Shown here piece after piece: positions 15,990 through 28,491 of a DNA stretch of 64,000 bases. Location: NCBI GenBank assembly GCA_965237415.1, contig CBDEFM010000002.1:3104001-3168000 (forward strand). The letters are read 5' to 3'. The stretch comes from Alphaproteobacteria bacterium. Lineage in GTDB: Bacteria; Pseudomonadota; Alphaproteobacteria; UBA828. The translations under genes were made by a program, and so were the position numbers. The notes beneath the pieces are model-generated. The model did not search any database. It was not told where the DNA came from and worked only from the letters and a program-made list of their open reading frames with translations. How positions within the stretch are numbered: the stretch's first letter is position 1; each line of letters opens with the position of its first letter.

Positions 15990-16244
15990 GCCTGACCGAC
16001 GCCGCTGGCCAACGACAACGGTGCCCACCAGCGTCGCACCCAGGCAAATGGTCATGCGCTGCTCCAGCTCACGCATCTGGCCTCGCAGCGACGCCTCGGT
16101 CTTCTCAAGGTCGACCTTGGTCGCCAGGGTCTCGCCCGTGCGCTCGGAAAAGGTCTCGACCAAGATCGCGGCCTGCTTCTCGTCGAAGCCGCCTTCGGCG
16201 CGCGGCCGCCGCGCGGCCCTGAGCGTGTCGAACGCCAGCGTCAT
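15990..16244 (-). pseudogene. DUF1640-like protein, copy 2 (degenerate)
   Basis: MTLAFDTLRAARR...GGFDEKQAAILVETF...LATKVDLEKTEASLRGQMRELEQRMTI. Confidence 0.65.
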
Positions 16245-16480
16245 GCGCTCATCCCGTCGCCGCAGCCGGCGGCGGCGACCATGTGCACCGCCGTCGCCAC
16301 CGTGCCTCCGGCATTCCCGAACTCGGCCATGTCGGTCCTGAGCGCGCGCGGCAAGGACCGTCATCGGCCCGATCAGGCCGGGCGGCGGGATCGAAAACCG
16401 CCTCTCGGCGGGGTGGTTTGATTCCAGCGGCGCGGGCGCCGTCGGCGGGTATGTGTAGGGTTCGCGCGACTCGGGTACGC

Positions 16481-16629
16481 AGGGGTACGCTGGAGTTGGA
16501 ATTCACTCGCTTCCGCAGTGATTACGGCGGGCAATTCAGGGGGCTGAGGAAAGGGGCGGATTCGGAGGCTAAGTCACTGAAAGCAGCGAGAGAACGGAGA
16601 GTGTAGGAAATTTTCTACCCCCAGGCTCT
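16481..16629 (+). repeat. 149-bp direct repeat, copy 2
   Basis: Matches 13544-13692. Confidence 0.9.
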
Positions 16630-16904
16630 CCTCATTCTGAAGAGGCCTCGTCGGGAGGCCTCAGGGCGCGCCGCTCCCAGGATTTACGCCGCCGATCGGC
16701 GAATAAAGTTCCGTGCAGAACCGCAATAAACCCCTTCAACAACGTCGAAATTAGACGTGCCAGCCATACGCGCCGGTTTACCGGCCGGGCTGCGGGGTGC
16801 TTACGGGGCGCCTCGCATGATTCCGGCCGGTTACGCGGTGAAGCCGCCGCATCCTCTCGTGATGACGGCGCGCTTGCCGTTTACGGGGTGTTCGGCGCTG
16901 GGAT

Positions 16905-19334
16905 GTGACGGGGATGCCGCGCCGTAGCACGCTGACCCTATCCGGCCGGGCGGTGGACGCGCTCGCGGTCTCCGAGCGCGACGTCATCGTCTGGGACCGG
17001 GAGCTCGCGGGCTTCGGCGTGCGCGTCTACCCCTCGGGCCGCAAGGGAAAGTCTGAACAACCCCATGTTCGCGGTTTCGAGGGGGAGAGGCGGCTTGGAT
17101 GTGAAGCTCGACGATATTGCCGACAGGCCGGGGGCTGCTTTGGTCACGGGATACGGAGCGAACGGGCGATATCCGCGTCGATCCGCCTCCTTCCCCGCCG
17201 TCCCGCCAGCGGCGGGCAGACTACTCCCCTGTCATCCCGTCGCGTAGCGGCCGGCGATCAGCAGATTCGAGAACCCCAGCAGCAACGCGATGCGCTGCCT
17301 GTTCTTTGCCACGCCCCGGTAGCGCACCTTGGCGTAGCCGAAGTGCCGCTTCACGTACAGGAACGGATGCTCAACCTTCGCCCGCACCGACGCCTTGCGC
17401 TTCTCGGCCGCCTCTTCGGCGACGCCCTCGCCCAGCAGCCGGCGCCGCCCCGGCTTCATCGCCACACGCCACTCGACACCGCCGTCCCGGTGCTCGGGAC
17501 GCTTCTCCACTCCCTGGTAGCCTGCGTCGCCCCACGCCGTCGTCTCAGCGCCATGCAGCAGCGCTCCCGCCTGCGTCACGTCGCTTGCGTTGGCCGCCGT
17601 CGTCGTCAAGCTGTGCGCCAGACCCGACCCGGCGTCCACCCCGATGTGCGCCTTCATCCCGAAATACCACTGCTTGCCCTTCTTCGTCTGATGCATCTCA
17701 GGGTCCCGTGCGCGGCGCCGGTTCTTCGTCGACGACGGCGCGTCGATGATGCTCGCGTCAACGATCGTCCCCGTGCGCAGCCGATGGCCGCGCGACGCCA
17801 GGTGCGCATTGATCTCCTCGAACAGACCCTCGCCCAGGCCGTGCTTCTCCAACAGATGCCGGAAGTTCAGGATGGTGGTCTCGTCGGGCAGCGCCTCCGT
17901 CAACCGCAGCCCCACGAAACGCCTCACCGACTCCACCTCGTAGAGAAGGTCCTCCATCCCCGGGTCGCTCAGGTTGTAGAACAACTGCACGCAGTGAACA
18001 CGCAGCATCACCGAAAGCGGGTACGGGCGCCGACCGCGCCCCGCCTTCGCATAGAACGGCTCGATCCGTCGCTCCAGCCGCTCCCAGGGAACCAGCTTGT
18101 CCATCTTCTCAAGGAACAACTCACGCCGCGTCCGGCGCTTCTTCAAGTCGTGCTCCAGTTCCGCAAAGCTTGCCTGTGCCATGGCTCGATCATCCAATCC
18201 GCGACTCCTGCGCAAATTATGGCACACGCAACTTGATCAGACCTTCCCAAGGTCTACGTCGTCCAAAGCCGGGCGGGTGGCGGGCCACGCCGCGTCACGC
18301 TCGGCACCCACGGCGAGATCACCGCAACCCAGGCACGCAAACGCGCAGCCCAGGTCATCGACCGCATCAAGCGGGGCGAGGAACCCGCAGCACTCCTGCC
18401 CCAGGCCGGCACCACCGTCGCCGACCTCGCCGAGCGCTACATGAGCGCCCACGTCGCACAGAACTGCAATGCGCACACCGCCGGCATCTACCGGGGCTCG
18501 CTGGAGAACCACATCCTGCCGGCGCTCGGCATGATGCCGCTTGGCCTGGTCGAGCGCGCCCACGTCTCGGCGCTCCACTACCGCCTGCGCGAGACGCCCC
18601 GCGCCGCCAACCGGGCACTGGCGGTCCTCTCCAAGATGTTCTCCCTCGCCGCCGCCTGGGGCCTCGTGCCGGACGGCACCAACCCCTGCCGCGCCGTCCG
18701 CAAATACAAGGAGAGAAAGCGCGAGCGCTTCCTCTCCCGCGAGGAGTACCGCCGCTTAGGCCAGGCCCTGGCTGAAGCGGAGGCCGAGGCGGGGGCGGAT
18801 GTGGAGGGCGCGGTCTCCCCCTACGCCATCGCCGCGCTCCGCCTCCTCATGCTCACCGGCTGCCGCCTGAACGAGATCCTTACGCTGCGCTGGGACGATG
18901 TGGACCGCACCGCAGGCGAGTTCCGGCTGCGCGACGGCAAGACGGGCACCCGCATGGTCCCCCTCACACCCACGGCGGAGGCGGTGCTGGCAGGCATCCG
19001 CCGCACGCCCACAAACCCCTGGGTCATCGTCGGCAAGCAGCCCGGCGCCCACCTCCCCACCATCACCGCCGAGTGGTATCGGCTCCGCGCCCGCGCAGGG
19101 CTCGACGACGTGCGCATCCACGATCTCCGCCACTCATACGCGAGCCGTGCGCTCGCCGCCGGCGAGAGCCTCTCCATGATCGGCAAGCTGCTCGGCCATG
19201 CCGACATCCAGAGCACCGCCCGCTACGCCCACCTCGCGCGCGAGACCGAGAGGGTGTCCGCCGCCAGGGTCGGCGCCAGCATCGGCGCCGACATCGCGTC
19301 GGCGGCCGGGGCCGGGAAGGACGGCGCGTCGTGA
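16905..19334 (+). pseudogene. Tyrosine integrase with Arm-DNA-binding domain, interrupted by IS5
   Basis: VWDRELAGFGVRVYPSGRK [IS5] VYVVQSR...; catalytic LTGCRLNEI, HDLRHSYAS, LLGH...TARYAH. Confidence 0.9.
17046..18247 (-). mobile_element. IS5-family element (transposase within 17232-18227)
   Basis: IRs GGAAAGTCTGAACAA / TTGATCAGACCTTCC, 4-bp TSD CAAG (17042-17045 and 18248-18251). Motifs IVDASII, FGMKAHIGVD, RAKVEHPF. Confidence 0.95.
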
Positions 19335-19820
19335 ACTATTCGGCGAGCCAGCCGGCGCGAGGCTCAATTACAGAGTGCGTCGTCGACGCCCTCCCGGCGG
19401 GCCGGGACACGGTGATCTGGGACCGCGCGCTCACCGGCTTCGGCGTCCGCGTCTATCCCTCCGGCGCCAAGGTCTACGTCGTGCAGACCCGGGGCCCCGC
19501 AGGCACGAAGCGCATCACCGTCGGCCGCCACGGCGTCATCGGCGCCGACGAGGCCCGCCGCCGTGCCGCCCTCATCATCGCCCGCGTGCACGCCGGCGAG
19601 GACCTCGCAGAACGCCCGGCGCAGAAACCCGCAGGCCCCACCCTTGCCGCGCTTGCCGAGCGTTACCTGCGCGAGCATGTCGCGGTGCGCTGCAAGCCCT
19701 CCACCGCAGCCCAGTACCGGCTCGCCATCGAGCGCTATATCGTCCCCGCCCTCGGAGAGCGCGCGGTCTCCGAGATCGGGCGCAGCCATGTCGCCGATCT
19801 GCAGCACGCGCTCCGCGACT
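19331..19820 (+). pseudogene. Second Arm-type integrase, N-terminal fragment only
   Basis: IWDRALTGFGVRVYPSGAKVYVVQTRG...LAERYLREHV; ends before the catalytic domain. Confidence 0.8.
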
Positions 19821-20158
19821 GCCGGACAATCCGAATTATTGTTTCGTGCCCGCTTACGACGTCGAGGCCGACGTGCAGCAGATCCGACTCGTCATCGAAG
19901 GTCTCTCCGGCCATATCCCGACCGCGCTGGTTGCGCTGGACCTCGACGATGCTCTCTCCATTTGCGACAAGCTTAACCGCAGACTCGGATACGACCGGGA
20001 TGCCTGGACCGCCATGGCAGCCGCGTCCATGCGCGCCGAAGGCGAGGATCCGGACAGCGGCGCCCGCCACTGACGCGACGCCGGCCGCCTGACCGCGCCG
20101 TCGCGCCGTCGCTCGCGCCGGCCCGGCTGCTGCGCAGCCGGCCTGCCGCCCTCTGCGC

Positions 20159-20699
20159 TCAACCCTTGTGCGCCAACCTTGAACTTCGAGGAGAAGGTCC
20201 GGATTGCCGCATGCCCGGCCGCGGCGCGTCCCTGCACGAAGCTGTTGTAGTCGGCGATGTTCGACGCTCGCGCACCGCGCCCCGTCGAGGTGACGAAAAG
20301 GAGGCGGAACTCGTCGCTGGCGCCCAGCCCCGGGGGCGTGAGCGCCCAGCTGCGCGGCACCTCGACGACGTCCTGGGCCGCGGCGGGCGCCGCCAGCGGT
20401 CCCATCGACAGCAGGGCAAGCGCCGCCGCAACGAAGGAAAGGAGCGCGAGCGGGCGCGCCGCCGGGAAGCAGCGGCGTCCCGCACGCGCAGCCGCCCACC
20501 GGCGAGCGGCAGGCCGGCGGATCGGATGGTGGCGGGAAATCGCGGCGAGCGCCGCCGCGGACGCGGTGCCGGCCGGGGCGGGCGGCAATTCCCGACCGCC
20601 CGCATCCGGCCGCCGCGCTCCGTTTCGTCCGAGCGCGAATTCATCGACAATGCCGACCCCGGGCCGGCAACCGGACACATCCGAACTGCGCATCGTCAC
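20159..20699 (-). pseudogene. Secreted/surface protein N-terminal fragment (truncated)
   Basis: Signal-peptide-like LALLSFVAAALALLSMGPLAAPAAA/QD followed by VPRSWALTPPGLGASDEFRLLFVTS...IADYNSFVQ; sense is lost after about 20170. Confidence 0.55.
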
Positions 20700-20706
20700 C
20701 CCACGT

Positions 20707-20740
20707 ATTGCGCTCGATAACTGTCACTATCGAGCGCAAT
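20707..20740 (+). other. lox-like recombination site 1 (13-8-13)
   Basis: ATTGCGCTCGATA-ACTGTCAC-TATCGAGCGCAAT: perfect 13-bp inverted arms around an asymmetric 8-bp spacer, 37 bp upstream of the recombinase ATG. Confidence 0.9.
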
Positions 20741-20777
20741 CCGTGGGCTCGGTTTCGGTCTGTGCGGAGGCGCCCTG

Positions 20778-21761
20778 ATGTATCTCGAACCCCCGTTCGA
20801 TGCTTCGGAGGCCCCGCTACCGGACCGCGGACCCACGCTCCCGGAACTGCTCGGACACTTCGTCCGGGGCGCCGGCGGGGCGTTCAGCGATAACACCGAG
20901 CGGGCTGTCCGCTCGGACCTCGCCATCTATGCCGGGTGGTGCCGGGAGCGGGGGCTGAGGGCGCTGCCGGCGACGCCGGAGACGGTCGCGGGCTTCGTCG
21001 ATGCGATGGCCGAGCGGCGCGCGCCGGCCACGGTGCGCCGCTATGTCGTCAGCATCGCCATCGCCCATCGGGCGGTTGGCCGGGAAGAGACGCCCGGGAG
21101 CCCGCTCGTGCGGCTCGCGCTCAAGCGCATGCACCGGCGCAAGGGGCGCCGGCAGGAGCAGGCGCACGGTCTGACCTGGCCGCTGCGCAACCGCCTGATG
21201 GCCGCGGCCGGCGACCGCCCGATCGACGACCGCAACCGCGCGCTGCTCGCCGTCGCCTACGACACACTGCTCCGCCGCGGCGAGCTGGCCTCCCTGCAAG
21301 TGTGCGATCTGCTTGAGGAAATGGGCGGCCACGCCACCCTGCTCGTGCGGCGGTCCAAGACCGACCCCGAGGGAGAAGGCGAGATCGTCTGGGTCGCGCC
21401 CGACAGCCTGCGCCTGGTCAAGGCATGGCTTGAGCGCAGCGGCGTCTCGGACGGGCCGCTGTTCCGCTCGGTCGGCAAGGGCGGGCGGGTCGGCGGCGGG
21501 TTCCACCCCTGCCAGGTGCCGCGCATCTTCAAGGCGATGGCCCGCGAGGCCGGCCTTCCCAGGGCGGTCGTGGAGGGCCTGTCGGGGCACAGCACGCGGG
21601 TCGGCGCCGCCCAGGACATGATCGCCGCCGACCTCGAACTGCCGGCGATCCAGCAGGCAGGGCGGTGGAAGTCCACCGCCATGGTGAACCGCTACGGCGA
21701 GCGCCTGCTCGCCCGGCGCAGCGGCGCGGCGCAGCTCGCCCGCCTGCAGGGTCGCGAATAG
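20778..21761 (+). CDS. Cre-type tyrosine site-specific recombinase (327 aa, intact)
   Basis: No Arm domain. AFSDNT...YAGWC N-terminus; catalytic LLRRGEL (R), RSKTD (K), SGHSTRVGAAQDM (H-x-x-R), QAGRW (W), MVNRY (Y), matching the Cre motif series. GGAGG RBS. Confidence 0.92.
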   Translation: MYLEPPFDASEAPLPDRGPTLPELLGHFVRGAGGAFSDNTERAVRSDLAIYAGWCRERGLRALPATPETVAGFVDAMAERRAPATVRRYVVSIAIAHRAVGREETPGSPLVRLALKRMHRRKGRRQEQAHGLTWPLRNRLMAAAGDRPIDDRNRALLAVAYDTLLRRGELASLQVCDLLEEMGGHATLLVRRSKTDPEGEGEIVWVAPDSLRLVKAWLERSGVSDGPLFRSVGKGGRVGGGFHPCQVPRIFKAMAREAGLPRAVVEGLSGHSTRVGAAQDMIAADLELPAIQQAGRWKSTAMVNRYGERLLARRSGAAQLARLQGRE

Positions 21762-21955
21762 AGGGAATATGTAATATCGTTCATGCCAATTCGACATTGC
21801 CCGCCTCCCGGGCAGCGGACCGGGGCGGACTGGGACGGCGGTGGATTCCCGGAGCGCAGGCGCCCGGCGGGTCCGGATTCGAAAACGATTATCGAGCGTA
21901 ATAATGTGCGGCGCCCGTGCGCCCGGCATGCTGCCGCTGCGGTCCGCAGGGGGGC

Positions 21956-21984
21956 TTGCAAACCACCGGAAGTCAGGCTACATA
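21956..21984 (+). promoter_or_regulatory. Candidate sigma70 promoter facing lox-like site 2
   Basis: TTGCAA-N17-TACATA, with a C before the -35 and GC before the -10, as in alphaproteobacterial housekeeping promoters. Confidence 0.5.
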
Positions 21985-22068
21985 AACCGATCCGAGGCTC
22001 TTCGGCGGCCGACGGTCGTGCCCGGCAAACGGCACGGGGCGTCGCCGGAGATGCGCGGAATTGTAGGG

Positions 22069-22102
22069 ATTACGCTCGATAGTGACAGTTATCGAGCGCA
22101 AT
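22069..22102 (-). other. lox-like recombination site 2, inverted relative to site 1
   Basis: ATTACGCTCGATA-GTGACAGT-TATCGAGCGCAAT. The spacer is the exact reverse complement of the site 1 spacer; one arm mismatch. Confidence 0.9.
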
Positions 22103-22676
22103 CCGGGATCTGCAATTCCGGGTCCGCGCCGCCCGCCGAGGGGCGTAACCGTCTGATATTCCACACCTGTTCGACGCCGGGCGAGCCCTTCTGCGGCCGG
22201 CCGGCGCTGTTTGCGCCCGATATTCGGCCTGCGCGCCGCGAGGCGCTGCCGGCGAGCCGGATTCCGGGCCCGGCTCGACCTCGCAACCGGCTGTCCGAAG
22301 AGGCTGCCCCGACCGTGTCGAACGGGCCGCCTGGAGAGCGGCGGAGACGCGGGCGCGGCCGGAGACCGCGTCCATCCCCCGGAAGGCGGAACGCCGCGCA
22401 CGGAGGACCGTGCGCGGCGCTGTCCGATGGTCGCGGGTCCGGTCGTGCAGCCCGTCGCCGGGATCCCGCGGCGGATCGCCCCGCCGCCCGGCCGGGCACG
22501 ATCCCTCCGGGAGGGGCGCGAGCCGGTGCGTCCCGCCGCCCGGGGTTCTTTCGCCTGTCCGGCTGCCGTCGTCTGGTGCACTCATCGCCCGGCTCCACGC
22601 GTCTCCACTGGGGCGCGTCCGAAGAGGATGCGCTACGGAGTCAGGTGGGAACGCGGTCTCTCGCGACCAGACGGAT

Positions 22677-22699
22677 TTTCCAATGGGGCCCATTGGAAA
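22677..22699. promoter_or_regulatory. 23-bp palindrome, possible protein-binding site
   Basis: TTTCCAATGGG-G-CCCATTGGAAA. Confidence 0.35.
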
Positions 22700-23450
22700 T
22701 GGTTATCGACCCTCCCCGCCCCGGCGCGCACCGCCCGCCGGCGGAACCGGCCCAGACAGGGCACCGGGCCTGCCGCCCCGCGTTCTCCTGGTCCGCTCCC
22801 CGTGACTAGCGACCCGGGACCGAAAAAGAAAATGCCGATCGAAACCAAATCCATTCGCAGGCGGCATGCGGCGGCGACGCTGCAGAACCGCCGGCGCTTG
22901 CGGTTCCGGCCGGTCGCAAGCGCTGCGGTCGCGGGGCCGACGACATTGGGCCGGTGGCCCGCCGGCCCGGCCGGCCCGCCAACTCGGCGGCCCGCCCGGC
23001 GGAATGCTCTGCCCCGCCGTTCGCCGCCAGGGGCGCTGACGGCTGATTGAATTCTGCGGATTCCCCGTGGATTCCCGGCTTGCCGGGACGATACCGCCTC
23101 GCCGCCCGCTGCGACGACCGCCAATGCGGGGTTTCCGCACAACCGCCGCCAAGCCGCGGTCGGCGTTCGCGCCCAGGACGGTCAAGTTGTGGGTCAGTGG
23201 GTTTGCATGGGATCCCACGTATCTGCGGTCGGTTCTCGGCCTCGCGCTCGCAGACAAATCTGTCGGCGATCTACGCCGCGAATTCCTTTGCAGCTCCGTC
23301 GAGTGCGTATCGCGCGCTATCGCTTGAAACTTGCTCTTCATTCGGCGACAAGGGGCGGCCATGGCGGGAACGACCGCGAGACTTCCGCCACCACTCGTAC
23401 GCAACGGATTCCATCACCTCGCACCGTCGTCAGAATAACTCAACTCCACC

Positions 23451-24737
23451 GTGGATGTTCCTATGCCTCCTTTCGACTGCAATCAGAGCAAACCAAAGCT
23501 CCTTGTAATTCTGGGAGCCGGGAGCTCTATCGATTGTGACATGCCGTCCGTTAGCGACATCAACAAGGAAATGAAACTCTGGAGTTGCAAATACCAGACA
23601 TCACTTCCCGACCAGTACGAGATCAACATATTCCAAGAATTGTGGGAAATGGTGAAATGCTACTATGGAACGAATCATTATGGCATTCGCCCAAATTACG
23701 AAATGGTTCTCGGCGAAATGACTGCGTTCGCCAGTTGGGCGTCGCCCTCTCCATTCGGCAATCCGCTGAATAAAGTTGTGAAGGACAGTTCGCCCACCGC
23801 TCCGTTTACATTGCTGCTAGATTGTTCAGATCCCAATCGCGTTCGCAAGGAAATTGTACGTCAACAAACCTTTCTCCTTGAACGATTGGTCGACTATATG
23901 CGCGAGAAGAGCAAGAACTTAAACATCCAAGCCGACTCGTTCTCCGACTACAGGGAGTTTTTTCGAAGGCTCCAGGATCGGTTCCAGCTCGGCGTCTACA
24001 ACTTGAATTACGATACCATGGCCCACACCGCGTGGCCAGAGTCGTTCAACGGATTCGATTGTTCGGGGCACTTCGATCCGTTACGTGTCAGCCGACGACA
24101 TGAGTGGGGATTCGCTTACCACCTTCATGGCAGCGTACATCATTGCATCGAAGACAAAGTAGTGAAGCCCTGGATCATCTGGAAAGAAGATCTTGATGAA
24201 TCATTTGTGGACTCCGGTATTCCGCCCATCGACATGGCGCAGCAGTTCAGGCCGATACCCTTGACCACATTGATCGCGGGCGGATTCAAGCTCGACCAGC
24301 TCCTTGCCGACCCATACCAGACATTCTACTCCGCCCTCATCAGGCATGCGCAGGAGGCCGATTCGATTTTGATTGCAGGATATGGATTTGGCGATCTGCA
24401 TGTGAACAGGGCAATTCAAAACAGATTTGAACGAAGTTACGATGATCGACGTTCGCCACAGGTCGTCGTTTTAGAAAAATCTCGTCCAGAGCGATTTCAC
24501 ACTGGGCGTCTCGAAATCAGCCAGTTTTGGTCTTATGAACTAAAGCATACGTTGAAGACCACCTTCTCTGACGGCAGCGAATATCCATCCGAGAACAGTT
24601 CCACGGTCGAGGACTTTATCGCCAGGCGGGAGTTCGAAACGGATCGCAAGGACCGGGTCGCCATATGGCACGGGGGCTTCCTAGATGCGCTTTCAGCTGT
24701 CGACAAGATCCTCGAGTGGTTGTCGAGGGGACTGTAG
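23451..24737 (+). CDS. SIR2-like domain protein
   Basis: LLVILGAGSS, YNLNYD, YHLHGSV, LIAGYGFGDLHVN; lower GC than the surroundings. Confidence 0.85.
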   Translation: MDVPMPPFDCNQSKPKLLVILGAGSSIDCDMPSVSDINKEMKLWSCKYQTSLPDQYEINIFQELWEMVKCYYGTNHYGIRPNYEMVLGEMTAFASWASPSPFGNPLNKVVKDSSPTAPFTLLLDCSDPNRVRKEIVRQQTFLLERLVDYMREKSKNLNIQADSFSDYREFFRRLQDRFQLGVYNLNYDTMAHTAWPESFNGFDCSGHFDPLRVSRRHEWGFAYHLHGSVHHCIEDKVVKPWIIWKEDLDESFVDSGIPPIDMAQQFRPIPLTTLIAGGFKLDQLLADPYQTFYSALIRHAQEADSILIAGYGFGDLHVNRAIQNRFERSYDDRRSPQVVVLEKSRPERFHTGRLEISQFWSYELKHTLKTTFSDGSEYPSENSSTVEDFIARREFETDRKDRVAIWHGGFLDALSAVDKILEWLSRGL

Positions 24738-24823
24738 CGTCGGCCCGCCTTGAATCGGCGCGTCCGATCGATGCAGTCCGGATCCGAGACAGCACGGGGC
24801 GGGTTGCCCGGTCAAGCGCCAAA

Positions 24824-24908
24824 GATGGCCGGCCGGAGCTACGTTGGGCTTCGAGGCTAAATGGGAAGCGCCTGCTGCCCGTCCGAGGGTGCGAACAGGC
24901 AGATCGTG
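24824..24908 (+). repeat. 85-bp diverged direct repeat, copy 1
   Basis: Ungapped alignment to 26832-26916, about 18 mismatches by eye. Confidence 0.75.
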
Positions 24909-25107
24909 GGCCTGAAGGATTCCAGGCAAACGGACTAACAGATCGCGTGATCCGGATACCCCGCCGTCCATGGGACCCGGGACGATCTCGTTCCCGCACT
25001 GCCGGACCGGATATCCACCTCCTGGCGCCCCCATGCAGGCCGTGCGGTCCGGCGTCTCCCGCTGAGCGTCGCGACCGTCGGGACCGGCCCAACGACCGGG
25101 ACGCTCA

Positions 25108-26259
25108 CTATTCCCCGCGAAAGCCGTAACGCGGGAATTCCACCGTCCTGACCTCCCTGAAGGGGTTGTTTTCTTTCAGCGCCCTATCAAGCTCTTCTTC
25201 GTATCTCCAGGGATGTTCGATATAGCACCACTCAACTGAGTACCAACCGCCTTCCTCCGGACAGAAGGATGCCCCGACGCATTTCGGAACTTTCAGGTCG
25301 TACTTGCAGGCAAGCGTCAAGTTCATCAGCCCCTGTTTCCTGACTTCGACCACATCTTCGGTCAGAGGTATGAAAACGAATCCGCAATCCGTACGCGGAC
25401 TGGCCATACGGTAAGGCAATGCGAATTCGTCCGATCTGCATTTTTCCATAGACAGGCGGAACCGCGTCTTAAACTCCCTCAACTCGTTTCTCTTCAGTTT
25501 CGCCAGTTCCTTCAGGATGGCGTAGTACTCCGTAGCGTGCCCGTCCGTCGTCACCCGTTCCGCAAACTGCTTGACGATTCCCGACATGTCCCACTCATCG
25601 GCGCGGTGTTCCAACTCCGTCAGGACATCCATGAACGCCGGTTCCGGCCTGCTGTCCGCATCGCCTGTCAGGTATTGTCCGACAAGCGCTGGTTCCGGCA
25701 CCGACGAGACGGCATCGTCCCATTTTTCGATCAACTCCTGACGAAACGCCAGATACTCGGACAGCTCGAACGGCGTCAGGACTGTACGGACGACACCGAG
25801 ATAATCATGCGCCGCAATGACGTGTATCGTTCCGGCAGTACGGCTGAGGTGGAACTTCTTCCTGCGGCAGGCCTCGGGAAGCCGGTCGTTGCCGAGATAA
25901 CATATCACCCTATGCAGGCCCGCAATGGCGTCACTTCTTAGCTTGAATTGGTGACCTCTATGGTTCCGGAGCAGAATGTTTCGGTGAACGTCCAGGTACT
26001 TCATGGAATCTCGAATTTGTTTCGTGCCGACACCGATAACCTTCTTTTCGAACCACCTGGCCTCTCTGTCCGGTGATGTTTTGCCGATCTTCTCGCGTTC
26101 CTTCAGTTGAAAGAGGACGAGCATATCGTCAAGCCAAATGATGCTGTCGGCCAGCTCCAGCTCGGTCGACGGGCTCGGACGAAAGGTGTTCGTCGAGTAG
26201 GTGAATTCCTCGAAAAAGAAGTGCTCGTTGAGACTTGCTATGTCGCCCTCGAACGTCAT
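25108..26259 (-). CDS. Hypothetical protein with PD-(D/E)xK/NERD-like N-terminus
   Basis: ELADSIIWLDDMLVLFQLKER resembles a nuclease E..D...(Q/E)xK signature; low GC. Confidence 0.6.
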   Translation of the reverse strand: MTFEGDIASLNEHFFFEEFTYSTNTFRPSPSTELELADSIIWLDDMLVLFQLKEREKIGKTSPDREARWFEKKVIGVGTKQIRDSMKYLDVHRNILLRNHRGHQFKLRSDAIAGLHRVICYLGNDRLPEACRRKKFHLSRTAGTIHVIAAHDYLGVVRTVLTPFELSEYLAFRQELIEKWDDAVSSVPEPALVGQYLTGDADSRPEPAFMDVLTELEHRADEWDMSGIVKQFAERVTTDGHATEYYAILKELAKLKRNELREFKTRFRLSMEKCRSDEFALPYRMASPRTDCGFVFIPLTEDVVEVRKQGLMNLTLACKYDLKVPKCVGASFCPEEGGWYSVEWCYIEHPWRYEEELDRALKENNPFREVRTVEFPRYGFRGE

Positions 26260-26397
26260 CTCGTTGCGTCCCGTTTCGTCCCGAGCATGGCCGGTTCCAC
26301 GTCCCGGCAATGATCCCCGCCGAACCGCCCCGGGTTTCCCGCAGGCATTCCGGTTGGGGTCATGCGTTCATAGTGAAGTTTTGGCCGGCTGCACAGC

Positions 26398-26690
26398 GAT
26401 TTGCCATCGACCGCGCGGCGCGCCGGGTGACCGCCGCAGAGCGGGCGATGCGGCTCACCGCCATCGAGTACAGACTCCTGCACACGCTCTCGCTCGACGC
26501 CGGCTGAGCGTCGGCCTCCGAGACCCTCCGGCGCCGGGTGTGGAGCGAACGGGGCGGCGCCGACCCGCAGACCGTGCGCAACGCCGTCCGCAAGCTCCGC
26601 CGCAAGATCGGCGACGACGCCGGGAACCCGAAATACATCCTCGGCGAGCGCGGCCTCGATTGCCGCATGCCCGGCCCGGAGGACGCGTGA
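26398..26690 (+). pseudogene. OmpR/KdpE-type winged-helix fragment
   Basis: RLTAIEYRLLHTL...(in-frame TGA)...LRRRVW...VRKLRRKIGDDAGNPKYILGERG. Confidence 0.75.
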
Positions 26691-26831
26691 GGCCGGAAGC
26701 GGGAGGGACCGCCGCGGCGTCCCCGCACCAGCGCCGGCGCACGGTGGCGCCCTCCACGGCGTCAGGTCCTGGACTTCCGACGACAACCACGCGATTTCGC
26801 GCGCTTGGGCGACCGGCGCCCCCGCGACGTG

Positions 26832-26916
26832 GATGCCCGGCCGGAGATCCTTCGGGATCCACGGCCAACCGGAAAACGCCTGCTGTCCGTCCGAGGGTAC
26901 GAACAGGCGGATCTTG
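26832..26916 (+). repeat. 85-bp diverged direct repeat, copy 2
   Basis: Matches 24824-24908. Confidence 0.75.
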
Positions 26917-26955
26917 CGGGTTTGCGGCGGGCCGAACGAACCGTAGGCTGTCCGA

Positions 26956-28491
26956 ATGGAGGATACGCAGCCGCAGCAGGGCGCCTGGACCATGCGACTG
27001 ATCGAGGGCCGGCAAGCCGATGCCGAGCTTGAGAATGTGGAAAGGGTGGAAGGCCTTGAGGCCGCCCCCGCCACGTTTCCCCTGGCGGATCTATCGCCCG
27101 TCGATTTCGAGCGGCTGAACTACGCCCTGTTCAAGAGCTCCTCGCCTCCCGGCGAACGTCGGATTTGGGACGACGCCGCTCTCATGCTGACCGGCGCCGA
27201 TGCAGGGCGGGACATCCTGCTGCTGGGAGGCGGCGCCGCACCGGGAGTCGTCCAATGCAAGAGACTGGGCGCTGCCATGGCGCGCCCTGCGGTTCTTCGC
27301 GAACTCTTCAAGTGCATTCTCTTCTGCACGCTCGACGCCTCATTGCCGCCGCTTTCCCCGCACGCGCATTACTTTCTTTCCCTGGCAAGGGATCCTGCCG
27401 GTACCGTCGTGGATTTCTTCGCGCAACCTTCGCAGTTCCTGAGTTCGCATCCATCGGACGTCTCCGAGGCGGTAAGAGACACGCTCAAATCGTATGGCTC
27501 ACTTCATGCGCTGGACTTCGACGACGCCTTAACCACCGTTCATCGGTATCTGCGATCGATGACTCTCCATCTGCTCAGACCGGTCGACTTGTATTTCTGG
27601 ATAGCTCAGGAACCGGACATCGCCAGGCGCTTCTTTCGACACCGCGTTGTTGTCGACAACGCTCCCGTCATGGACGAATTGGCCGCATTGCGCGGGAGCT
27701 TGGACGAAGTCGCTCGACAAACGAAAGGTATCTCCGCGATCACGGACGACGATGTGAAAATCATCAAGGACTACATCGATGGCGTTCCCGAATCGCACCG
27801 AACCTCGCTGGGCATTGCCTCCCTGTTCGGATTTCCGAGAGAAATGTTCGCCGGGGAAGAAAACTTCCGAAAACACCTGGAATCACTGGTGCGCGCACTC
27901 CAGGTCCTCCACACGGCTTACATCAATTGGATGAACTCCCGGGCCCAGGAGGAGGCGGCGCGAATTTGCGACATTCCGGAGATCCGGTTGACCGTTCATC
28001 CCTTCGCCCTGCAAATTGCCTCCGGCTACATGGGAACGCTGGCCGCAGACATCTCGCTTCGATCCCTGAGCGGCGAAGTGATGAGCTCGATCATCGAGAA
28101 AGCGACCAAGCGAAAGGCGCTTAGCGACGATGATGAAAGACTTGCGCACGTTTGCGAGCGCGTACTCGAACAGGGACGCCGACATCTTGCGCACGATTAC
28201 AGCCAGCTCGCCGGAGATGACGAACTGGTTGCGTTCAAGCGCCAGTTCTTCGACCGTCTCATGGCCGAAATTCCCGACAGGACAACACTGGAAGACGTCG
28301 TGCAAGACGGCAGGCGGAAACTGGAGCCGTACCTGAAGCAAGCGTCGTCGGAACTTCGGTCATTGGGGGGCTTTCGCCCAAGCGTGTTCCTGGCGGGAAC
28401 GAGCGGACTGGACAGCGACATCGCGATCGCGAAGATGGCGGACACCGCGCGGACATTGGACGGGCTTGGCGGTCGAGACGACGGAGGCTGA
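26956..28491 (+). CDS. Mrr-like restriction endonuclease domain protein with large unknown C-terminal region
   Basis: LSPVDFERL...GADAGRDI...VVQCKR Mrr_cat-type signature. Confidence 0.7.
   Translation: MEDTQPQQGAWTMRLIEGRQADAELENVERVEGLEAAPATFPLADLSPVDFERLNYALFKSSSPPGERRIWDDAALMLTGADAGRDILLLGGGAAPGVVQCKRLGAAMARPAVLRELFKCILFCTLDASLPPLSPHAHYFLSLARDPAGTVVDFFAQPSQFLSSHPSDVSEAVRDTLKSYGSLHALDFDDALTTVHRYLRSMTLHLLRPVDLYFWIAQEPDIARRFFRHRVVVDNAPVMDELAALRGSLDEVARQTKGISAITDDDVKIIKDYIDGVPESHRTSLGIASLFGFPREMFAGEENFRKHLESLVRALQVLHTAYINWMNSRAQEEAARICDIPEIRLTVHPFALQIASGYMGTLAADISLRSLSGEVMSSIIEKATKRKALSDDDERLAHVCERVLEQGRRHLAHDYSQLAGDDELVAFKRQFFDRLMAEIPDRTTLEDVVQDGRRKLEPYLKQASSELRSLGGFRPSVFLAGTSGLDSDIAIAKMADTARTLDGLGGRDDGG

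Follow-up and report, generated by a model that had tools for sequence, protein, structure and literature searches.

The window analysed here is the whole 64,000-nt stretch of DNA (contig CBDEFM010000002.1, positions 3,104,001 to 3,168,000) from an alphaproteobacterial genome of the UBA828 lineage (assembly GCA_965237415.1), and our subject is a cassette of ~1.4 kb within it, in which the gene of a Cre-type tyrosine recombinase lies between two lox-like sites in inverted orientation (Table 1). The spacers of the two sites, ACTGTCAC (site 1) and GTGACAGT (site 2), are exact reverse complements over all 8 bp, and a repeat search recovered both sites as one inverted repeat (I1; 39 nt, 95% complementary), i.e., repeat search and spacer pairing agree on a segment bounded by inverted recombinase-target repeats; the segment between the sites that could invert measures 1.36 kb. 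With up to 2 mismatches allowed, the window contains 11 copies of the 13-nt arm, where 1.8 are expected (0 of 100 shuffles reached 11), and the full 34-bp pattern was found in just 3 places of the 4.75-Mb genome (0 in the backwards control). The distance from site 1 to the ATG of the recombinase is 37 nt, which is the equivalent of its place in related cassettes (-71/-72). The original prediction, made from the letters of the window, had described two 34-bp sites with 13-bp inverted arms and reverse-complementary 8-bp spacers in the geometry of loxP, flanking an intact 327-aa recombinase akin to Cre with the R-K-HxxR-W-Y set; the coordinates and letters of the sites agree with ours, the 13-8-13 layout is borne out also in 23 related cassettes, and the description of the enzyme is corroborated by its open reading frame (ORF), its Pfam match and its alignment with Cre.

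The recombinase ORF is preceded by GGAGG (20766-20770), and Phage_integrase (9e-16) is its sole Pfam match. In a phmmer search against PDB, Cre ranked first by far (E 2.6e-26; residues 34-315 of the query on residues 35-332 of the 343 of Cre), followed by XerD (1e-6). The alignment spans both domains of Cre, and the 327-aa protein, which has no extra arm-binding domain, falls within the Cre-like range of 300-400 aa. The Cre catalytic set is kept at six of six aligned residues (R166, K194, H271, R274, W297 and Y306), and the ORF holds LSGHSTRVGAAQDM where phmmer aligned the Cre stretch sghsarvgaardm. The relatives found in a phage collection were only Cre-type (~30% identity) and Dre-type (28%) enzymes. 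The NCBIfam equivalog models of the XerC/XerD chromosome dimer resolvases scored 28-32 bits on it, far under their cut-offs of 220-335. Ratios of nonsynonymous to synonymous substitution rates (dN/dS) of 0.21-0.40 relative to its relatives (each of the ten compared genes has 327 codons) indicate that the recombinase gene is under purifying selection.

Table 1. Features of the cassette and its immediate surroundings (window positions).
Feature	Position	Strand	Description
Remnant target gene	19735-20699	-	ORFs 19854-20699(-) and 19735-20499(-); reads away from the cassette
Site 1	20707-20740		13-8-13 lox-like: ATTGCGCTCGATA-ACTGTCAC-TATCGAGCGCAAT
Site 1, parts	20707-20719, 20720-20727, 20728-20740		outer arm, spacer (central 6 bp CTGTCA), inner arm
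Cre-type tyrosine recombinase, 327 aa	20778-21761	+	Pfam, phmmer against PDB, phage collection
Conserved block with lone half-site	21875-21905	+	most strongly conserved stretch of the 3' region (cassette A vs B)
Lone recombinase half-site	21890-21902	-	arm match in the same sense as the right arms; 1 mismatch to the arm
-35-like hexamer position of putative outward promoter	22061-22066	+	degenerate in the window copy (TTGTAG)
Site 2 (inverted orientation)	22069-22102		13-8-13 lox-like: ATTACGCTCGATA-GTGACAGT-TATCGAGCGCAAT
Site 2, parts	22069-22081, 22082-22089, 22090-22102		inner arm, spacer (central TGACAG), outer arm
X-flank (conserved flank outside site 2)	22103-22222	+	gap-free alignment, 16 cassettes
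Near-arm TTTGCGCCCGATA	22210-22222	+	ends the X-flank; same offset (+141) in L017 and L020

Whereas the original prediction took the cassette as a single instance, our survey revealed a family of more than 20 in related Alphaproteobacteria; the site-gene-site design, for which it had recommended searching the flanks of homologues, was found again in 23 cassettes. The source genome alone carries four full-length paralogues (100, 80, 69 and 66% identity) with two arm types, located on the chromosome and on the 713-kb second contig. The alignment of cassette B (C2:3020684-3022080) with the window cassette (A) begins at the first base of site 1 and ends at the last of site 2, while their flanks are unrelated, and cassettes C and D (the latter at C1:297035-298405), which represent the 66-69% identical type, have other arms (TTGACTCGCGATA and TTGGCTCGCGATA) in an unchanged layout. 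A scan of one genome per species added 18 loci with 71-80% identity in alphaproteobacterial metagenome-assembled genomes (MAGs, labelled Rhodospirillales, Defluviicoccus, Rhodobacterales and others), some of which hold several copies (at least six loci in one MAG), and a scan of metagenome contigs added 11 further loci, among which there was no new orientation case. Across the family, site 1 is found at -71/-72 from the ATG and site 2 ~300-320 nt past the stop codon, and pairwise homology between cassettes is mostly bounded by the two sites. Matches were present in 5 of 20 other genomes of the same genus and in 0 of 20 more distant relatives; in a class sample of 401 genomes, 18 genomes matched at E <= 1e-25. 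Two of the same-genus genomes show irregular copies: in G011 the recombinase gene is split by an insertion of ~2.1 kb (L039/L040, G011:C1:2079474-2082495), and in G003 two paralogues lie 4 kb apart (L033/L038, G003:C1:651281-656139), the second of which (66% identity) has no recognisable sites.

To compare the spacers, both sites were cut by coordinate from the 23 cassettes having two identified sites; left out of this count were L027 (truncated gene, site 2 only), L035 (site 1 degenerate; its central spacer matches too, by eye), L038 (no sites), L036, L037 (pseudogene with TGA), L039/L040 (gene split) and all metagenome loci. The central 6 bp of the two spacers are reverse-complementary in 23 of the 23 cassettes, in which seven different central spacers occur (CTGTCG in 9, CTGTTG in 5, CTATTA in 3, CTGTCA and CTATCG in 2 each, CTATTG and CTTTTG in 1 each). 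Spacer positions 1 and 8, and with them the full 8 bp, match in just 12 of the 23. When partners were permuted, none of 20000 permutations reached 23 matches (mean 5.45, maximum 14), a count that overstates independence because of the kinship among the cassettes. Still, repeated changes have occurred in the spacer, each time on both sites. Unmatched positions 1 and 8 around a matched central 6 bp are what would be expected of a Cre-like cleavage with a 6-bp stagger, in which the exchanged core alone is homogenised, and from the established Cre mechanism together with this covariation we infer a 6-bp crossover core. The central spacers of the source genome are CTGTCA (A), CTGTCG (B) and CTGTTG (C and D; these two have the spacer in common, but are on separate contigs and differ in their arms), and such spacer differences might stop cassettes in one cell from recombining together.

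Homologous loci in both orientations were found at the level of the family (L010 vs L012 and L024 vs L014). L010 and L012 come from one MAG and share, on the same strand, a cassette with 96.65% identity over 1941 nt, while their flanks correspond crosswise and on the opposite strand, the right flank of L010 to the left one of L012 (94.6% over 646 nt) and the left flank of L010 to the right one of L012 (80.9% over 867 nt). Where flank and cassette meet, the outer arms keep to the flanks and the inner arms to the cassette, a partition that would be the footprint of a crossover inside the spacer, and judged from these alignments the pair is a natural inversion product. In the second flipped case, L024, the left flank corresponds on the opposite strand to the right flank of L014 (72% over 217 nt), and the X-flank motif stands at the site 1 side. 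At the 5' end of the cassette, both L010 (2692-2772) and L012 (2883-2963) carry a tandem pair of lox-like sites 47 bp apart, and their 3' region is ~500 bp longer; the inversion between them used the outer tandem site.

We propose that the cassette is a phase-variation inverton that carries its own Cre-type invertase and has a promoter-type output, a reading which we hold to be probable, if not by a wide measure of certainty. The recombinase would bind the four 13-bp arms of the two inverted sites and cleave with a 6-bp stagger within the 8-bp spacers, whereupon the 1.36-kb segment would flip (as the Cre family and the comparative pattern suggest). Promoter-like elements at the 3' end would point outward through site 2; in the OFF state, which would correspond to the common orientation, they would face the conserved non-coding flank, and in the ON state, after inversion, they would face a gene whose ribosome-binding site and start codon adjoin the other site. 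Across the family the target would usually be a giant secreted adhesin-like protein, and the position of the cassettes at the 5' end of giant surface-protein genes makes phase variation the likely role.

The putative promoter would straddle site 2. In 20 of 22 cassettes, TTGACA precedes the inner arm of this site with a gap of 2 nt, and it is shifted by one base in one other (the window copy reads TTGTAG); a 17-nt spacing from TTGACA puts the -10 position in the crossover region, so that the element would be rebuilt identically upon inversion and read outward. On the target side, a purine-rich stretch and a start codon recur directly outside the outer arm of site 1, and in 11 of 21 loci an ORF of 850 aa or more begins no farther than 170 nt outward from this site. 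Pfam assigns fn3, SWM_repeat and Calx-beta domains to the proteins next to cassettes B (2701 aa) and D (3041 aa), and fn3, Cadherin-like, Calx-beta and LapA domains to those next to L017 and L014. In the flipped loci the gene start lies at the opposite end: a homologue of the L010 neighbour starts 15 nt past site 2 of L012, after AGGAG, and a TbpB-like gene adjoins site 2 of L024. The right-hand ORFs of the common orientation are Arg/Pro-rich by eye, and of 10 right-hand ORFs compared with Pfam 8 have no family (the two with a match are the TbpB-like gene of the flipped locus L024 and an arylsulfotransferase on the minus strand in L022); since these ORFs look spurious, a toggle between two genes is unsupported.

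Besides the two sites, the cassettes have further arm-like sequences, of which the lone arm and the near-arm had been missed by the original prediction. The lone half-site is flanked by a -35-like TTCGAA (21878-21883) and a -10-like AATAAT (21900-21905), a promoter reading made by eye, and the counterpart of this block in cassette B is TTCACA-17-AATAAT. A lone arm occurs in 19 of the 20 cassettes scanned (L027 is the one without a listed arm); relative to site 2 its position ranges from -170 to -199 and is mostly -179, i.e., 200 bp from the distal arm of site 2, and it covaries with the arm type of the cassette; this placement would let the recombinase repress the upstream promoter-like block. 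Past site 2, the first 90 nt align gap-free in all 16 cassettes compared, among them those of the 66-69% identical C/D type; columns 45-46 (AA, 22147-22148) and 52-53 (TG, 22154-22155) are invariant, and RNAalifold found no consensus RNA structure in the 16 X-flanks. The lone half-site, the near-arm and the X-flank are probably accessory or regulatory binding sites, and their conservation raises doubt that the 34-bp sites alone suffice; given accessory half-sites and a conserved flank, the natural reaction may be less simple than that of Cre/loxP. A search of Rfam (E <= 1, positions 16000-27000) gave no match, and ARAGORN found no tRNA in the window. Farther out on the same side lie a second, G+C-rich 13-8-13 palindrome (22389-22422, ~290 nt past site 2), near-identical counterparts of which are found ~200 nt past site 2 in L016, L018, L019, L020, L025 and L027, and a non-coding block of ~185 nt (22523-22707), which is conserved at varying offsets in the right flanks of L014-L020, L025 and L027, has a partial copy at C2:1540298-1540386 (81%), contains a perfect 21-nt palindrome (22678-22698) and has no Rfam match.

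Several observations, apart from the kinship among the cassettes, weigh against an inverton with a promoter-type output. The -10 positions implied by TTGACA fit the consensus poorly, and a consensus promoter scan of the window copy called no outward promoter; its single match (CTGTCA-17-TACAAT, minus strand, 22088 to 22060) points into the cassette. Inspection by eye revealed no promoter for the recombinase gene. A giant ORF adjoins site 1 only in the 11 of 21 loci mentioned above. The X-flank is recognisable in 18 loci, in 16 at the site 2 side and in 2 at the site 1 side, and in those 16 the promoter end faces away from the big gene, which requires either a strong bias towards OFF or a reversed assignment of ON and OFF. 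At the window locus itself, the Logan contigs of two runs of one study, laid on 20300-22500, show only the orientation of the window (site 1 is spanned by X1 record 5 and X2 record 9, site 2 by X1 record 8 and X2 record 15), and no strand-change joint is listed among them; contigs cannot show absence, and a minority orientation is neither shown nor excluded by them. One joint from 20395 to 22118 was given no weight, for it is found in one contig with a side of 21 letters and lies away from the sites. The idea of a self-inverting cassette, already put forward in the original prediction, is strongly supported by comparison, through the 23 cassettes with matched spacers and the homologous loci in both orientations; at its own locus the contigs have one orientation.

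The distribution of paired sites is also restricted. Homologues without such sites had been named by the original prediction as evidence that would speak against it. The site-gene-site design recurs in the 23 related cassettes, but among the distant homologues of the class sample (31-64% identity) paired 13-8-13 sites occur in 0 of 17 loci. Relatives on plasmids are numerous (406 records at E <= 1e-20; 49% identity for the best, from Methylobacterium), and of three plasmid homologues examined one has a single site and two have none. The former, on plasmid p1METDI of Methylorubrum extorquens DM4 (L059, 48.5% identical), has one lox-like site with similar arms (2899-2932), at -72, and no second site; it adjoins toxin-antitoxin genes and represents the single-site arrangement in a cultured strain. 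Both results count against the proposed inverton as a general property of these enzymes: because the distant homologues and the Methylorubrum plasmid copy lack paired sites, the design is confined to one sub-family, and the single-site arrangement of the plasmid relative would be the ancestral or classical form.

Part of these observations would suit a cassette that inverts with another output, be it expression of its own recombinase, a terminator or insulator placed between neighbours, or the disconnection of the adjacent gene from a promoter that reads out of the 5' end (in which case the common orientation would be ON). That the big-gene side adjoins the 5' end of the recombinase in 16 of 18 loci would be natural if this were the expressed state, and the lack of a called outward promoter in the window copy, like that of a recombinase promoter found by eye, fits as well. 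We nevertheless regard this alternative as unlikely, because by eye neither the 37 nt between site 1 and the ATG nor the start of the ORF has a conserved minus-strand element that is A+T-rich or resembles TTGACA, whereas two conserved promoter-like blocks stand at the 3' end in a genome of 70% G+C, and because a gene start abuts the 3' end in both flipped loci.

The cassette could also be a selfish mobile element resembling an insertion sequence (IS), with the recombinase as its 'transposase' and the sites as terminal inverted repeats, in which inversion would be incidental and the position near surface genes would reflect preference or tolerance of insertion. Multiple copies per genome (four here, at least six loci in the MAG mentioned), the patchy distribution (5 of 20 same-genus genomes, 0 of 20 more distant ones), homology that mostly ends at the two sites while neighbour genes vary by locus, and integrase and IS remnants around the window copy all agree with such an element. 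Since all 16 cassettes compared, C/D type included, keep the sequence past site 2 in a fixed register, the ends of the unit are not the sites; moreover, the four copies in the source genome have no target-site duplication by eye, no free-standing target-like site exists elsewhere in the genome, and inverted sites cannot excise a circle by conservative recombination, as is established for the Cre family. We think it quite improbable that this explains the cassettes. An ordinary Cre/loxP-like module for dimer resolution or integration, derived from a plasmid or prophage and with site 2 as a functionless leftover, is the least credible and may almost be dismissed: the plasmid relatives, the partnerless site of the M. 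extorquens DM4 copy and the island with integrase fragments around the window copy would suit it, but position and inversion of site 2 and the spacer match are kept in 23 of 23 cassettes across seven spacer types, and cassettes occur on the chromosome too, besides the 713-kb second contig.

If the proposed inverton is set beside known systems, it resembles Cre/loxP of phage P1 and Dre/rox of D6 in the recombinase family, the 13-bp inverted arms, the 8-bp spacer and the pattern of a 6-bp crossover. It differs from Cre/loxP in that two inverted sites flank the gene, in the sequence of the arms, and in its additional elements (lone half-site, near-arm and conserved flank outside). Phage P1 has one site, next to cre, for plasmid dimer resolution and cyclisation. 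The gene-inside layout is that of Hin/hix, the flagellar switch of Salmonella, where the invertase gene lies inside an invertible segment with an outward promoter. Hin, however, belongs to another family with another chemistry, being a serine recombinase that, in the sources as far as accessible, needs Fis and an enhancer. According to the accessible parts of the sources on fimS and FimB/FimE (type 1 fimbriae of E. coli), that system likewise combines a tyrosine recombinase, short inverted repeats and a promoter segment next to a surface-structure gene in an ON/OFF switch, but its recombinase genes are outside the 314-bp switch, whereas here an enzyme of the Cre sub-family is encoded within the 1.36-kb segment itself, and each site is a full lox-like palindrome around a defined asymmetric spacer. 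PsrA (CreX) of the pneumococcal type I restriction-modification locus, to go by similarly partial texts, is a further tyrosine recombinase that makes programmed inversions for phase variation, shuffling hsdS coding segments among several inverted repeats, where the present system has one promoter-type cassette and two lox-like sites.

Programmed inversions and Cre-type recombinases are each already well known. In its accessible text, the study of Jelicic et al. (2023; PMC10250229) reports ~500 predicted pairs of Cre-like enzymes and 13-15-bp palindromes within 1 kb of the gene; the present family would fit these search criteria, and Supplementary Table S2 of that study may list members of it, while that text does not mention two inverted gene-flanking sites or a natural role in inversion. 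Recombinases located 'near or inside' invertible regions are already known, as a passage of PMC9881135 states. Our full-text literature searching, the supplement of PMC10250229 aside, yielded no description of a built-in invertase of the Cre sub-family between two sites of loxP geometry, and the accessible portions of PMC10250229, PMC3414803, PMC8138268, PMC9881135 and PMC11602134 do not describe such a system. What appears to be new is the combination of a Cre sub-family enzyme with full lox-geometry sites, a putative promoter straddling one site and accessory half-sites.

A bolder form of the proposal, which we advance tentatively and consider rather doubtful in its entirety, is that these cassettes are an undescribed class of portable phase-variation module. 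Such a module would unite a Cre-type enzyme, full lox-like sites, a promoter straddling a site (-35 in the cassette, -10 in the crossover region) and half-sites inside and outside that would bias switching or repress the promoter; diversification of the spacer (seven central spacers, mostly differing within a genome) would insulate the switches from one another, and recombination at the sites would spread them between surface-protein genes. The family would then be a natural set of mutually orthogonal pairs, with at least three arm types and heterospecific spacers. If the inverton is real, a plasmid-type single-site resolution system has been turned into a switch of giant adhesins in environmental Alphaproteobacteria, and its seven spacers with a 6-bp exchanged core constitute a natural experiment on spacer specificity. 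Use of the enzyme/site pair as an orthogonal tool in genome engineering is a plausible prospect, and the family would offer several such candidates with non-loxP arms, although the accessory sites may make them less simple than Cre.

The window copy itself has an intact enzyme and perfect sites with spacers matched over 8 bp. Its neighbour at site 1 is the remnant gene of Table 1 (19735-20699). A purine-rich stretch and a start codon stand no more than 15 nt from the outer arm; a signal-peptide-like segment (by eye) and then a frameshift come next. No Pfam family was found in this gene, and its pieces in two frames match places 4.5 kb apart in another gene of the genome (C2:837.7-842.5 kb). 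Directly to the left of it lies mobile-element debris (17232-18227 on the minus strand, 18441-19334 and ~19400-19800 on the plus strand) comprising an IS5-type transposase (DDE_Tnp_1, DUF772), a phage-type integrase without its N-terminal part and an N-terminal fragment of an integrase (by eye). Given the degenerate -35 and the frameshifted target, this copy may still flip but probably controls nothing useful, and it looks like a partly decayed, orphaned switch.

To the right of the cassette, an island of low G+C content (48-60% compared to ~70%) contains two ORFs, at 23451-24737 (+) and 25108-26310 (-). Their products are a protein with a SIR2_2 domain that matches Aga_SIR2 of PADLOC (1e-13) and a 400-aa protein without a family in Pfam, NCBIfam or PADLOC, and the island may be a defence island.

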